DNA from: Spirochaetota bacterium
GTDB lineage: Bacteria; Spirochaetota; UBA12135; COTS27
Length of the DNA stretch: 64,000 bases
NCBI GenBank assembly: GCA_965249715.1
Contig: CBDFMP010000049.1
Location: 8,547 to 72,546 of the forward strand
Direction of reading: 5' to 3'
Part shown: piece after piece, positions 362 through 62,199 of the stretch
Layout: every line of letters starts with the position of its first letter
Numbering within the stretch: the stretch's first letter is position 1
Translations under genes and position numbers: made by a program
The notes under the pieces: model-generated
The model's database searches: none
Told to the model about the DNA's origin: nothing
Seen by the model: the letters and a program-made list of their open reading frames with translations, nothing else

Positions 362-504
362 TGTTTAGGATTGTTTATGCTTGCCGCCGGAACGCAGCTT
401 GGCAATGAGCTCCAATGTCTCAGCATGACCGCTGAGTACCAGGCAGAGCAGCGTTAAAATCCCCAAGAACCCTGCGGTAACAAAGATGTCAGCCGTTTCA
501 AAGA
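362..504 (-). repeat. Direct copy of the murJ 3' end (copy of 617..759)
   Basis: 143 bp, identical by eye, offset 255 bp, includes the stop codon. Confidence 0.95.
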
Positions 505-619
505 ACTTTTCTGTACGGTGGCTGCCAGCACTACCACTTCTGCTGTCGCTGGTTATACGGATTAAAATCAGCTCGCCGCATTGTGTTAGCCGCGTAGCTT
601 GTGCTTGTGCTTGTGCTGT

Positions 620-2269
620 TTAGGATTGTTTATGCTTGCCGCCGGAACGCAGCTTGGCAATGAGCTCCAATGTCTCAGCATGACCGCTGAGTACCAGGCA
701 GAGCAGCGTTAAAATCCCCAAGAACCCTGCGGTAACAAAGATGTCAGCCGTTTCAAAGAGTTTTTGTAAGATAACCGAACTACTGGTGACACTGAGTGCA
801 TCAAGCGCAAACGCGATAGGCTGGCGCAGAAAGTAAGTACTGATAACTGGAAGACTGAGGCAAAACACTGTGCGGGTGACTTGTCTGAGAATGTGGCTTG
901 TAAGGGGAAAGCTGAAAGTGCCGGGAGAACGACTCATCAGCACAATGAAGACGATACTGGTGAGCAATGCGCCGCAGCTGGCACCAAGCGCGACCATTGG
1001 GATGGTCGGCTGAAACTGAATGAGCAGCAGCACACTGCCAATGCTGGCACACAATGAGCAGGCAGCCACAATGACCACACTGCGCCCGCGCGTGCGCGCG
1101 TAAAGTGTTTGTGTGAACAGGCGGTTCAATGCAATAAACGGCAGCCCCAGTAGATGGAAAAATAGGCAGCCAGCGGTGAGGACAATGCTAGCTGCCGTGA
1201 AGGCACCAAAACCAAAAACAAGCGAGACAATGCTCTTGTACGTCAGGATGCCGACACACAGGGCAAAAGACGTACTCAGCAGGATGAGTGAGAGACTTTT
1301 TTTAAATGCTGTTTCAAAGTCCTGCAGCTGGTTTTGGCTGTGGTAACGCGACAGATCTGGGAACGCCGCGGTCAGTACGGGATACACCAGGAGGGCAAGC
1401 GGGAATTCACTGAGACGATTGGAGAAAAATAGGGCGGTGACGCCGCCCGCACCCAGACTGAGCGCGATGGGGTCCAGTAATAAAATTTGCAGGTGGTGCA
1501 GCAGCGCACTGAGCGTAACAGGTGTACTGAGGCGGCGCATGACGCGCAGCCGCGCACGTGTGAGACTTTTTAGACTGAAGCTTAACCGTAGCTTGCTGCT
1601 GCGCAGCGCCACGCGCATGAGCAGCACTTGACAGCCGCCGCCGATAAGCACGGCAGCACTGAGGATAAATGTAGCCGTTTTGAGGTTTGTTTGCTCAGAC
1701 GGCGTCTGAAACATCACAATGCTGATGCCTGCGATCATCGCCAAATTTAGCACGATGGGAAGGGCGGCAGCAACTTTAAAGCGTCCTTGTGTGTGCAGCA
1801 GCGCCGCTATAAGCGTGGCTACGGCTATGGCGATGAGGTAAGGGAAGAGAATGATGATGAGGAAACTGGTGTGTTGGGTGATGGCACTGGCGGATGTGCC
1901 TGCAGGAAATACTGCCGAGTGGTAAAATGCGCGACTGAGCCAGGGCGCACAGAGAATGCCCAGCGCGGTTACCGCACTGCTGGCGATGACGGTGACGGTG
2001 AATAGGAAGTTGAAATTCTGTTGTGTGTTTTTTTGGGCAGCGGACTGGTTGAGAATGGGGATGAAAACGGCGCTGGCAGCACCCTCAGCCAGAATACCGC
2101 GAAAAAAATTCGGTAGCTTGAACGCAAGTGTGAAGCTATCGGCAATGGCGGAAGTGGAGAACAATGCTCCCATGAGCGTGCTGCGCAGCTGCCCCAGCAC
2201 GCGGGAGACGAAAGTAAGCGAGGAAATGGCGCTTATATTTTTCAGGCGGAAGCTTGTTGGAACGGACAC
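620..2269 (-). CDS. murJ: Lipid II flippase MurJ (MviN)
   Basis: SRVLGQLR, AFKLPNFFR..AEGA and NRLSEFP motifs; many TM segments. Confidence 0.92.
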   Translation of the reverse strand: MSVPTSFRLKNISAISSLTFVSRVLGQLRSTLMGALFSTSAIADSFTLAFKLPNFFRGILAEGAASAVFIPILNQSAAQKNTQQNFNFLFTVTVIASSAVTALGILCAPWLSRAFYHSAVFPAGTSASAITQHTSFLIIILFPYLIAIAVATLIAALLHTQGRFKVAAALPIVLNLAMIAGISIVMFQTPSEQTNLKTATFILSAAVLIGGGCQVLLMRVALRSSKLRLSFSLKSLTRARLRVMRRLSTPVTLSALLHHLQILLLDPIALSLGAGGVTALFFSNRLSEFPLALLVYPVLTAAFPDLSRYHSQNQLQDFETAFKKSLSLILLSTSFALCVGILTYKSIVSLVFGFGAFTAASIVLTAGCLFFHLLGLPFIALNRLFTQTLYARTRGRSVVIVAACSLCASIGSVLLLIQFQPTIPMVALGASCGALLTSIVFIVLMSRSPGTFSFPLTSHILRQVTRTVFCLSLPVISTYFLRQPIAFALDALSVTSSSVILQKLFETADIFVTAGFLGILTLLCLVLSGHAETLELIAKLRSGGKHKQS

Positions 2270-2363
2270 AAGCTGGGGCCGGTGCGCTGCGGTAATTAAC
2301 TAGGCAAATGCAATGAACAGACTGCTGCGGTAGGCTAAAACAAACGCAGCAATGCCCAATGGA

Positions 2364-3374
2364 TTAATCGTCTGAGACCAATTTATCGCGAAAGAGGTTT
2401 TTCATGAGCTTGCGCAATTTTTTACCGGTGGTTTCAATGGGATGCTCTGCAGAAAGCCGCCGCTCAGCTTTCATGCGAATTTTGCCGTTTGCCGCTTCTT
2501 CGATGAAATCACGCGCGAAACTTCCGTTTTTGATGTCTTTAAGGGCGCGACGCATGGCTTTGCGGGTTTGTTCGGTGATAATGGAAGGTCCTGTTTTATA
2601 ATCGCCGTATTCAGCAGTTTCGGAAATGGAATAACGCATGTTGGCAATGCCGCCTTCATAAATGAGATCGACGATGAGTTTCGTTTCATGGAGGCATTCA
2701 AAATATGCCATTTCCTTTGAATAACCCGCTTCCACAAGGGTTTCAAAACCAGCGATGATGAGCTGTGACATGCCGCCGCAAAGGACGCATTGCTCGCCAA
2801 AAAGATCGGTTTCCGTTTCTTCTTTAAAGCTGGTCTCCAGCACGCCTACACGCGTTGCGCCAATGCCCTTAGCGTGGGCAAGTGCCAGCTGATGGGCATT
2901 GCCTGTGGCATCCTGCGAAATGGCAATGAGTGCCGGGACGCCAGTACCCTGTTTGTATTCACGGCGTACAGTGTGACCAGGCCCCTTGGGAGCCACCATG
3001 TACACGTCAACGTCTTTCGGTGGAGTGATGAGCTGATAATGAATATTGAAACCGTGCGAGAAAACAAGCGCATTGCCTTTTTTCAGGTGGGGTTTGATGT
3101 CCTGTTCGTAAACGTTTTTTTGAACTTCGTCCGGGATCAGCAAATGAATGATGTCGGCTTGACTTGCTGCTTCGCTGGCAGAAAGCGGCTTGAAACCATC
3201 GCGGATGGCTTGGGTGTGATTGGGACCGCCGGGGCGCTGCCCCACAATGACATTAATGCCGCTTTCTTTGAGATTGAGCGCGTGTGCGTGTCCTTGTGAG
3301 CCATAACCGATGATGGCGATGGTTTTGTTTTTGTAGGGACTGATGTCGCTGTCGGATTCGGTATAAACTTTCAT
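2364..3374 (-). CDS. ilvC: Ketol-acid reductoisomerase
   Basis: [42 protein letters not shown]. Confidence 0.98.
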
Positions 3375-3470
3375 AATAATGCTAACAATGTTTAAAAAAT
3401 TATATTAATTGGAATTGCGGGAGAATGTGTGTGCGGGTTACCTACGGTTGTTTATGCTTAACAAACGGAA

Positions 3471-60774: not shown

Positions 60775-60825
60775 TGTAATGGCTTAGCGTACACCTCAGC
60801 CTTTATGTTGCATTGAGCAATTTTT

Positions 60826-60866
60826 TTCGGCGATAGTCAGCGCAGCCGTAATGACAAAAGCTGTGC
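60826..60866 (-). repeat. Near-identical hemB 3'-end relic 1 (copy of 61177..61220)
   Basis: TTCGGCGATAGTCAGCGCAGC---CGTAATGACAAAAGCTGTGC; two synonymous changes and a 3-bp deletion. Confidence 0.9.
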
Positions 60867-60886
60867 AGGTGTGTTGGATTGCCCCT

Positions 60887-61069
60887 TTATGCTATATCCT
60901 CAACATTAGCTATTGACGCATTTTCTTTTACAGATTTTATGCCGTTTTCGCAAGCTTGTTTGCTGCTGTATCCTTCAGAAGTAGCGATAATTTCACCATT
61001 TTTTGCCCTTAGCCTGAAACGATATTCATCAGCCCGATCTTTGAATATTTGAAATTTTGGATTTTCCAT
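60887..61069 (-). CDS. YegP/DUF1508 family protein
   Basis: FQIFKD..EYRFRLRAKNGEIIATSEGYSSK..CENGI.SVK.NA; GGGAG RBS. Confidence 0.92.
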   Translation of the reverse strand: MENPKFQIFKDRADEYRFRLRAKNGEIIATSEGYSSKQACENGIKSVKENASIANVEDIA

Positions 61070-61161
61070 TTTTGTGTCTCCCAATTGTTTTTACTAAACT
61101 GTAATTGTTGTTGAACTAATGCCCACCAATAGATTCTAATATAAGTAGCAATAAAATCGGG

Positions 61162-62199
61162 TTAAATTAATTTGTGTTCAGCGATAGTTAGCGCAGCGTA
61201 CGTAATGACAAAAGCTGTGCCGGCACGCTGAAAGGCGGTGAACAGCTCGGCGAGCGCGGCATGTTCATCGAGCCACCCCTTAGCAGCAGCAGCTTTAAGC
61301 ATCGCGTATTCACCCGAAACATGGTAGGCGGCGATGGGCAGCGGCGGCTTGAGCTCACGGTGTAACATCGCAATAATGTCTAAATACGGTGTGGCTGGTT
61401 TCACCATCAGCAGGTCTGCGCCCTCAGCGACATCGAGTAAAGCTTCACGTAATGCCTCACGGGCATTGCTGGGATCCATTTGGTAGCTGCGGCGATCGCC
61501 GAACTGCATCTGCGATGCCGCGGCAGTACGGAAGGGACCGTAAAATGCCGAAACAAACTTAACAGCATAACTCAAAATAGGAATTTGCGAGTACTGCTCA
61601 GCATCCAATGCTGTACGGATGGAAGCGACCATGCCGTCTAGCATTGCAGAAGGGGCGATAATGTCAGCGCCAGCTTGTGCCTGGATCACCGCTTGTTTGG
61701 CAAGCAATGGCAAGGTGGCATCGTTATCGACGGTTTGACTTCCAGCGGGTACAATGCCGCAATGTCCGTGTGCGGTGTACTCGCAAAAACAACAATCGGT
61801 GATAACAATGAGCTCAGGAAAACGCGCCTTAATGGTGCGGACAGCTTCGGCGATGACACCAGTGGCGCTGATGGCGTCACTTCCTGATGCGTCCTTGTGT
61901 TTGGGGATGCCGAAAAGGATAATGGCGCGGATGCCGGCATTGAGACAGCGTTCAATGTGCGGAAGCGCACGCGTGGCAGAGTATTGCGATATGCCCGGGA
62001 GCGCTGGAATGGCAGCCTCATGTTCCGGGTGGTGATGGATGAAAAAGGGCATGACCAGCTTACTGGGATTGAGCGCGGTTTCACGCACCAGCGCGCGTAA
62101 CTGAGGACTGCGGCGCAAGCGGCGCGGGCGGTGTTTGAACGGCAATGTCCGCTGTGACGAAGCTTTTAATATTGGCGCTGAGGTCATGGATGTTCCCAC
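61162..62199 (-). CDS. hemB: Porphobilinogen synthase
   Basis: RPRRLR, CFCEYTAHGHCG, FYGPFR, YQMDP, MVKP, AYHVSGEYAM. Confidence 0.98.
   Translation of the reverse strand: MGTSMTSAPILKASSQRTLPFKHRPRRLRRSPQLRALVRETALNPSKLVMPFFIHHHPEHEAAIPALPGISQYSATRALPHIERCLNAGIRAIILFGIPKHKDASGSDAISATGVIAEAVRTIKARFPELIVITDCCFCEYTAHGHCGIVPAGSQTVDNDATLPLLAKQAVIQAQAGADIIAPSAMLDGMVASIRTALDAEQYSQIPILSYAVKFVSAFYGPFRTAAASQMQFGDRRSYQMDPSNAREALREALLDVAEGADLLMVKPATPYLDIIAMLHRELKPPLPIAAYHVSGEYAMLKAAAAKGWLDEHAALAELFTAFQRAGTAFVITYAALTIAEHKLI

Follow-up and report, generated by a model that had tools for sequence, protein, structure and literature searches.

Gene-end echoes in the 64-kb window

The stretch of DNA analysed here, hereafter the window, comprises 64,000 nucleotides (nt) and corresponds to positions 8547-72546 of contig C49 in G000, a metagenome-type assembly of 2,422,764 bp in 49 contigs (84.85% complete, 2.3% contamination). 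At eleven of its loci, gene ends are accompanied by local direct repeats of themselves, which we term echoes. Repeats were located using Tandem Repeats Finder (TRF) and a repeat-family search, with sensitive self-BLAST added for the weak loci. All 11 loci at which the original prediction had placed echoes, from murJ to hemB, were found to carry local direct repeats (Table 1). Counting the originals, such repeats occupy 10,870 nt of the window by self-BLAST. Sensitive self-BLAST of the window revealed no repeat common to different loci, in keeping with the claim that each family is private to its locus. The two copies at murJ, which had been taken for identical, are in fact 98.7% identical.

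At the DUF4403 gene, the first of the six copies is the functional gene end and the other five are echoes. These echoes have about ten differences from the functional copy in common and are closer to one another than to it. The array possesses a second, higher-order periodicity of 880 nt, which shows that a three-unit block was itself duplicated. Because each cysH/cysD unit comprises a cysH tail, a 12-nt spacer and a cysD head, the two inner units form in-frame cysD'-cysH' fusion open reading frames (ORFs) of 133 amino acids (aa) each, at 26289-26690 and 26703-27104. At the recC/recB boundary, the first recB start forms a truncated ORF of 107 aa that matches the UvrD-helicase N-terminal model. 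The gene names given in the original prediction were upheld for murJ, cysN, cysD, cysH, recC, recB, BaxI_1, RbfA, DUF4403, ALAD/hemB and the BPL ligase. The recD label was not, as the gene in question possesses neither a match to the RecD model nor Walker motifs.

Table 1. Echo loci of the window. Positions are those of the window; self-BLAST identities are between the two segments given.
Locus	Position	Strand	Repeat structure	Calls by TRF or repeat-family search
murJ 3' end (617-765) and downstream echo (362-510)	362-765	-	Offset 255 nt, 98.7% identical (self-BLAST)	
BaxI/YccA-like gene (3593-4342), echo of tail region, old and diverged	3475-3925	-	3475-3610 and 3791-3925, 77% (self-BLAST)	
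DUF4403 gene (11309-12814), end array	12537-14308	+	Six 294-nt copies: last ~273 nt of the gene plus ~20 nt downstream	TRF 12541-14308 (294 nt x 6, 94%)
3' ends of convergent pair 18553-20934 (+) and 21483-22625 (-)	20813-21567		172-200-nt array	TRF 20867-21567 (172/200 nt)
cysN (23910-25316), 3'-end echoes, complex array	22691-24176	-	Units of about 270 nt	TRF 22705-23481 (271 nt); repeat-family search 22691-24176
cysH/cysD array	26079-27322	-	Three 414-nt units: cysH 3' end, 12-nt spacer, cysD 5' end	TRF 26079-27322 (414 nt x 3, 98%)
recC 3' end and recB 5' start, two copies	32354-33002	+	32354-32664 and 32674-33002, 91.5% (self-BLAST)	Repeat-family search 32472-33002
recB 3' end and start of downstream gene, three units	37472-39161	+	Units of 517-644 nt	Repeat-family search 37472-39161
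Biotin-ligase-like (birA-like) gene (41396-42208), diverged 3'-end echo	41919-42551	+	41919-42242 and 42256-42551, 74-85% (self-BLAST)	
rbfA (46604-46993), fragments in complex array	46634-48558	+	Extends almost to next gene (48740)	Repeat-family search 46634-48558
hemB (61162-62199), short, diverged 3'-end echo	60819-61223	-	60819-60869 and 61169-61223, 55 nt, 85% (self-BLAST)	

Genome-wide extent and placement of the arrays

Screening of the whole assembly with TRF returned 316 rows with a period of at least 50 nt. Merging of rows, with a period of at least 100 nt and a score of at least 400 required, gave 181 arrays that together cover 224,820 of 2,422,764 bp, or 9.3% of the genome. The 160 arrays lying outside genes account for 201,740 bp and have a median of 3.2 copies and a maximum of 16.6. 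Their units are private, 132 of the 160 lacking an off-locus match; the other 28 mostly represent one array split across two contig ends or a small paralogous family. The distribution of periods in G000 is bimodal: one peak lies at 10-30 nt, a hump spans 150-450 nt with its mode at 250-300 nt, and few periods fall at 30-150 nt. More than 100 unrelated housekeeping genes are affected, including cysN, cysH, cysD, recB, recC, rbfA, hemB, mutS and recA. The pattern described for the window extends throughout the genome.

Each array was assigned to a class according to which genes run into it. Genes were taken from a codon-usage caller made for this analysis (1943 calls, 1720 of them outside arrays), and the expectation was obtained by putting the same unit lengths at random positions 20,000 times. 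The terminal units hold 141 3' gene ends against 30 5' ends. A single 3' end is present in 65 of the 181 arrays, two convergent 3' ends in 28, and a 3' end together with the 5' end of the next gene in 22; 11 arrays hold a 5' end only, one lies at a divergent pair and one holds a 3' end whose stop lies beyond the first unit. The remainder either have no anchor gene (32) or lie inside a gene (21). Random placement would give 61% internal arrays, 11.6% with 3' and 5' ends, 9.8% with 5' ends, 8.3% with 3' ends, 6.5% in spacers, and 1.0% each at convergent and divergent pairs. Convergent arrays thus outnumber divergent ones by 28 to 1 in a genome with 217 convergent and 209 divergent gene pairs.

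The period is divisible by three in 21 of the 21 internal arrays, whereas the other 160 arrays split 58/49/53. Likewise, all six internal arrays of G001, a one-contig genome of the same genus, are in frame. Distal breakpoints of the 57 single-3'-anchor arrays are spread evenly over the original spacer (quartiles 0.24/0.44/0.68), and the coding share of their units is spread evenly from 0.18 to 0.95. Taken together, the pattern of class, frame and breakpoint is that expected if duplication strikes without a target and harmful products are then removed. The order of survival follows the likely cost, with convergent 3' ends ahead of single 3' ends, then spacers, operon boundaries and finally 5' ends and in-frame internal positions. 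Out-of-frame internal duplications do not survive.

The arrays are real, and the data show their spread through the genome, their joints, their distribution by class and frame, their near-neutral decay and their confinement to this lineage. We consider it likely that the echoes are tandem duplications which the lineage makes or keeps in exceptional number and which have survived selection, and that no new DNA-integration system is involved. The data thus favour what the original prediction had offered as its simpler null, namely a duplication mutator combined with survival of boundary-spanning events. Local segments, mostly of 150-450 nt, would be copied head to tail at joints sharing a few bases. 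We infer the molecular route, for which replication template switching, slipped misalignment and microhomology-mediated break repair are candidates, and likewise the reason for the high rate or retention. Many duplications would then grow to 3-16 copies through further duplication or unequal exchange. The duplication itself would not be aimed at gene ends; rather, purifying selection would remove those events that interrupt a reading frame or interfere with a promoter or the start of a gene, leaving survivors at a gene 3' end (safest between convergent genes), in a spacer or as an in-frame insertion in a gene. In 3' arrays that persist, function would be retained by the copy attached to the gene body, and the others would drift as dead fragments.

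Alternatively, the 3' bias might be mutational, were duplication targeted to termination zones, where breaks or stalled forks caused by accumulating convergent transcription or positive supercoiling would be repaired with a local duplication. Convergent spacers are indeed enriched about 15-fold (28/181 against 1.0% expected). In addition, 30 of the 56 single-3' arrays that have a neighbour face a convergent gene, against an expectation of about 26% (217 convergent and 1245 co-oriented pairs). However, arrays are also found inside genes (21, all in frame) and without any anchor gene (32), no preferred distance of the breakpoint from the stop codon was detected, and the classes rank as their likely cost to fitness would predict. 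We regard targeting of this kind as decidedly unlikely.

Relatives, decay of the copies and gene content

The host is probably a deep-branching spirochaete bacterium, judging from the sequences of InfB, which is at most 39% identical to any match found, with spirochaetes on top, and of NusA, whose ten nearest clusters are all Spirochaetota. Comparison was made with G001, with G002 from the same family, with G003 and G007 from the same order (represented by nine genomes in all) and with G023 and G024, complete control genomes from the same phylum. The pattern recurs in relatives: G000 contains 14.9 arrays per 200 kb, G001 15 (30 in 400 kb), G003 5, and G007, G023 and G024 1 each. In the 94.7 kb of G002 that were examined, five arrays were found, three of them at contig ends. 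The window and G001 are collinear, with protein identities of 26-82%, and no echo was found at the orthologous DUF4403, cysN, cysH/cysD and recC/recB ends of G001. Of the 47 arrays in G001, 36 are purely intergenic, and periods are mostly 50-170 nt without the 300-nt hump. The infB-rbfA neighbourhood is the only one in the collinear region with arrays in both species; that of G001 holds four copies of a 114-nt unit in one array and 21 copies of an 80-nt unit in another (G001:C1:209573-211738). Array density falls as phylogenetic distance grows; the trait is one of the family as a whole, with individual arrays turning over.

The joints between copies were read in two-copy arrays. Exactly two full copies are resolved in 11 of 39 such arrays, with breakpoint overlaps of 1, 4, 8, 4, 1, 6, 1, 3, 1, 0 and 3 nt; in the remaining 28 the second copy is partial or its ends have diverged and the joints are unreadable. 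Microhomology of 0-8 nt is therefore present at the resolvable joints, as the original prediction had proposed. In two-copy arrays identity ranges fairly evenly between 100% and 94%, and multi-copy arrays centre on 90-97%; taking all arrays together, identities extend from 100% to below 80%. The even spread among two-copy arrays points to a continuing process rather than a single burst, and the range as a whole agrees with the recurrence already suspected from the window.

Functional copies and echoes were compared at 114 gene anchors, and their differences fall on codon positions 1/2/3 in the proportion 927/839/1271, with 1150 synonymous and 1887 non-synonymous (1150/3037, or 38%, synonymous). 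Random changes would be about 26% synonymous; a rough expectation for duplication in situ, with a constrained functional copy and a free echo, is about 1:1:1.7 and about 40% synonymous. The overall differences are thus near the expectation for in situ decay with a modest excess, and allelic divergence would be far more synonymous. When each alignment column is counted once, two-copy arrays give 35/30/77, with 72 changes synonymous and 70 not (51%). On the same count, differences fixed between the functional copy and all echoes give 94/74/124, and those among echoes give 265/250/361, with 339/889 synonymous. The substitution spectrum of the copies is symmetric and transition-dominated, and no adenine-specific differences were found in it. 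The echo nearest the gene is closer to the functional copy than is the farthest echo in 37 arrays, against 16.

The interpretation first placed on the window was additive integration of homologous DNA, taken up or released in the cell, with the old gene end pushed downstream; this might proceed via homology at one end and microhomology at the other, or via circularisation and a single crossover. The microhomology at the joints, the gradient of 37 arrays against 16, the 72/142 synonymous differences of two-copy arrays (above the rough expectation) and the presence of a ComEC-like gene are all compatible with it. However, the gradient is predicted equally by repeated local duplication, and the overall share of 1150/3037 lies close to in situ decay. 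A circularised 150-450-nt duplex should leave unit lengths phased at the helical repeat, and no phasing at 10.5 nt was detected (Rayleigh z 0.3, n=148); the best periodicity, 8.35 nt, is not significant after a scan of 360 periods. Moreover, the ComEC-like match falls short of the family cut-off and occurs to the same extent in genomes with few arrays, and variation between sequencing runs is far below the 2-6% divergence of the copies. The missing helical phasing and small between-run variation speak against this mechanism, and the near-neutral decay tends the same way; it is not needed to explain the data, and we likewise consider it decidedly unlikely.

Echo stop codons are changed in 4.2% of cases against 5.0% and 4.6% in their flanks, in alignments that run past the stop, and 197 of 208 are still stops. 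An initial indication that they are conserved (323/326) was rejected, as local alignments end at the stop and an unbiased re-test finds no conservation. These values bear on whether the arrays are kept because they are useful, as gene-end spacers or buffers, gene-conversion reservoirs or a supply of small fusion proteins. In both inner units the cysD'-cysH' fusion ORF is uninterrupted, and some arrays display a strong third-position bias (e.g., 5/5/37 at C46:202746-205846). Conversely, echo stops and coding parts decay like the flanking non-coding DNA, orthologous sites in G001 do not share the arrays, and the genes affected are unrelated housekeeping genes. Retention for usefulness is very improbable on this evidence.

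Sequencing data were examined as Logan (de Bruijn) contigs of four runs from one sample, with a depth of about 4-8. These contigs break at array edges (12570/14266, 20907/21600, 22763/24107 and 26161/27204 in the window), and pieces inside arrays have a depth of 13-22 against 4-8 in the flanks, i.e., two- to four-fold higher. The original prediction had pointed to raw reads as the arbiter: no single-copy join across any window array was present among the contigs of the four runs. An assembly artefact, in which strain variants or overlapping contig ends were laid in tandem, is the least probable explanation of all, for although the assembly is of metagenome type and 12 arrays touch contig ends, several of which carry one and the same array, independent contigs branch exactly at the array edges where depth rises, an artefact could not respect reading frame (21/21) or gene orientation, and the one-contig G001 has an equal array density.

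Several points nevertheless weigh against untargeted duplication and selection as a complete account. The gene calls rest on a simple purpose-made caller, and the head-to-tail order rests on the assembly, the run data being contigs that cannot prove tandem order. The 3' and convergent bias could be partly mutational, owing to termination zones or supercoiling, and the data cannot separate this from selection. Synonymous differences exceed the share of about 0.26 for random changes both in two-copy arrays (72/142) and among echoes (339/889); this excess could stem from gene conversion by the functional copy, mutation bias or some imported alleles. Slippage together with selection does not account for the clustering of unit lengths at 150-450 nt, their scarcity at 30-150 nt or the preference of G001 for units of 50-170 nt. 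Finally, no difference in gene content cleanly tracks array density.

The genes encoding RecBCD were inspected for leads on the cause of the high rate. RecB and RecC comprise 1642 and 1340 aa here (window 28449-37740) and 1830 and 1839 aa in G001 (L152:1485-12522). These lengths are far above usual, and the family models align to stretches set apart from one another, suggestive of large insertions. For the ORF following recB (39948-41285, + strand, 445 aa), no match was obtained in Pfam, NCBIfam, PDB or Atlas, nor was a family, PDB or Atlas match obtained for its counterpart in G001 (L152:12654-15770, 1038 aa); neither sequence contains Walker A/B motifs. Both align weakly but consistently with the C-terminal part of the G002 RecD by BLASTP, and the ORF is possibly an ATPase-dead remnant of RecD. 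RecD itself is at or near the cut-off in seven of the nine genomes of the order and was not found in G000 or G001. Since G002 retains a RecD with Walker motifs yet also seems array-rich, loss of RecD is not required for the arrays and cannot be their sole cause.

RecJ was not found in G000, G001 or G003, with a weak match only in the array-poor G007, and RecQ was above the cut-off in G004 and G006 only. RecA, MutS, XseA and the Pol I 5'-nuclease do not distinguish array-rich from array-poor genomes, being present in both. The original prediction had noted no integrase, transposase or reverse transcriptase (RT). No transposase signature lies behind the echoes, a search of five genomes returned no Ku, and no intact RT was found in G000 and none at all in G001. 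The sole RT match in G000 lies on another contig and is broken (C33:1876-2687; two pieces, with a TGA inside one).

The leads on the cause of the high rate are therefore the failure to find RecJ and RecQ and the RecD-like gene without Walker motifs, and they are correlations from one clade. We raise tentatively, and as an unlikely extension of the duplication account, that the genus has a duplication mutator of set tract length (~300 nt here, ~90 nt in the sister species) and that remodelling of the break-processing machinery gave rise to it. Such machinery would draw on the giant RecB and RecC, the RecD-like partner without ATPase motifs and the apparent lack of RecJ and RecQ. Forks that break or stall would resume through synthesis primed at microhomology, and a short tandem copy would result. 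If this is true, the genome would constitute a natural record of a repair pathway undescribed in bacteria, and the process would also lengthen proteins.

Individual arrays show further features. The largest (G000:C48:159751-169478) contains 6.5 copies of a 1497-nt unit at 95% identity over 9.7 kb and extends into a gene 3' end. Three decayed 3'-end echoes accompany mutS (G000:C19:9191-10004), and the array adjoining recA extends into the recA tail (G000:C47:202979-204215). A dispersed family of ~250 nt (71-99% identity) is present at G000:C20:5702-6146, C30:572-873, C31:5840-6400, C41:2503-2970, C37:54439-54784 and C47:39194-39341, and several of its copies are themselves tandemly duplicated with differing unit lengths (171, 254 and 161 nt). 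The arrays at G000:C6:5683-6645 and C29:4498-6115 have near-identical flanks (99.4% over 1449 nt) and differ in unit length (405 and 488 nt) and copy number (2.4 and 3.3); these are either paralogous loci or co-assembled strain variants. Contigs of different runs show scattered differences from the assembly, such as four changes in 40 nt in run X3 (window 11356-11395), which indicates co-existing strains.

Elsewhere in the window, region 56817-60774, a low-GC stretch (34.6% over 56001-58000), may be an acquired island. It includes a DUF6119 gene (56937-58529) between 70-nt direct repeats (56817-56883 and 58503-58572, 93%) and, nearby, a DNA methylase gene (59920-60774).

Comparison with known systems

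A full-text literature search, with supplementary files outside its scope, found no earlier description of a genome-wide pattern of gene-end echoes. Systems in which extra partial copies of the 3' part of a gene lie beside that gene include diversity-generating retroelements (DGRs) and the silent cassettes of pilS, vls and tprK donor sites. These are limited to one gene or a handful of genes for surface proteins and depend on RT or directed gene conversion, whereas here more than 100 unrelated housekeeping genes are affected, with no adenine-specific pattern and no intact RT. A DGR was rejected as an explanation, there being no RT by the repeats and no adenine bias, and antigenic variation from silent cassettes was rejected on the identity of the genes hit, among them cysN, recB, rbfA and mutS. 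In naturally transformable bacteria, homology-facilitated illegitimate recombination can add DNA through one homologous anchor and a microhomology joint. That process needs DNA uptake and usually involves foreign sequence, whereas nothing here requires a donor.

In Escherichia coli, RecA-independent slipped misalignment yields tandem duplications at a few shared bases. Microhomology-mediated tandem duplication in Schizosaccharomyces pombe is similar in its head-to-tail copies, few-base joints and lack of a dedicated element (10.1101/2020.03.03.972455). The duplications of S. pombe and E. coli are transient, sub-clonal and mostly short, whereas about 160 are fixed here, 0-20% diverged and amplified, with a preferred length of about 300 nt. 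The Wolbachia repeats VNTR-141 and VNTR-105 (variable-number tandem repeats) are alike in being intergenic, with units of ~100-140 nt and strain-variable copy number in a host-restricted bacterium, and the purely intergenic arrays of G001 resemble them. However, the Wolbachia repeats occupy few loci and 0.9-1.6% of the genome, have units with hairpins and do not involve gene ends (PMC3287509).

The closest known case is that of Ehrlichia ruminantium, a small genome with several percent of long-period tandem repeats. Truncated gene fragments in that species were reportedly tied to the repeats by Collins et al. in 2005. G000 is of the same type, having 9.3% of its sequence in long repeats and 141 3'-end and 30 5'-end anchors as truncated gene fragments. 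The two hosts differ, E. ruminantium belonging to the Alphaproteobacteria and the present host being a probable spirochaete. Tandem repeats make up 6.3% of the E. ruminantium genome (PMC3287509, PMC10710844), described in a 2012 paper as the highest bacterial content reported (PMC3287509). Judged against that figure, the content here is higher (9.3%, counting only periods of at least 100 nt) and occurs in an unrelated, barely known lineage; the units are also longer (mode 250-300 nt), and figures are given here for the 3' and convergent bias and for the frame filter.

Arrays of this kind break short-read assemblies, create false small or fusion ORFs in annotation and lower marker-based estimates of completeness. 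The preferred unit length, which differs between the two species, points to a mechanistic ruler. Furthermore, since about 160 independent events have been preserved with their joints, the genome provides a natural experiment on which tandem duplications are tolerated.

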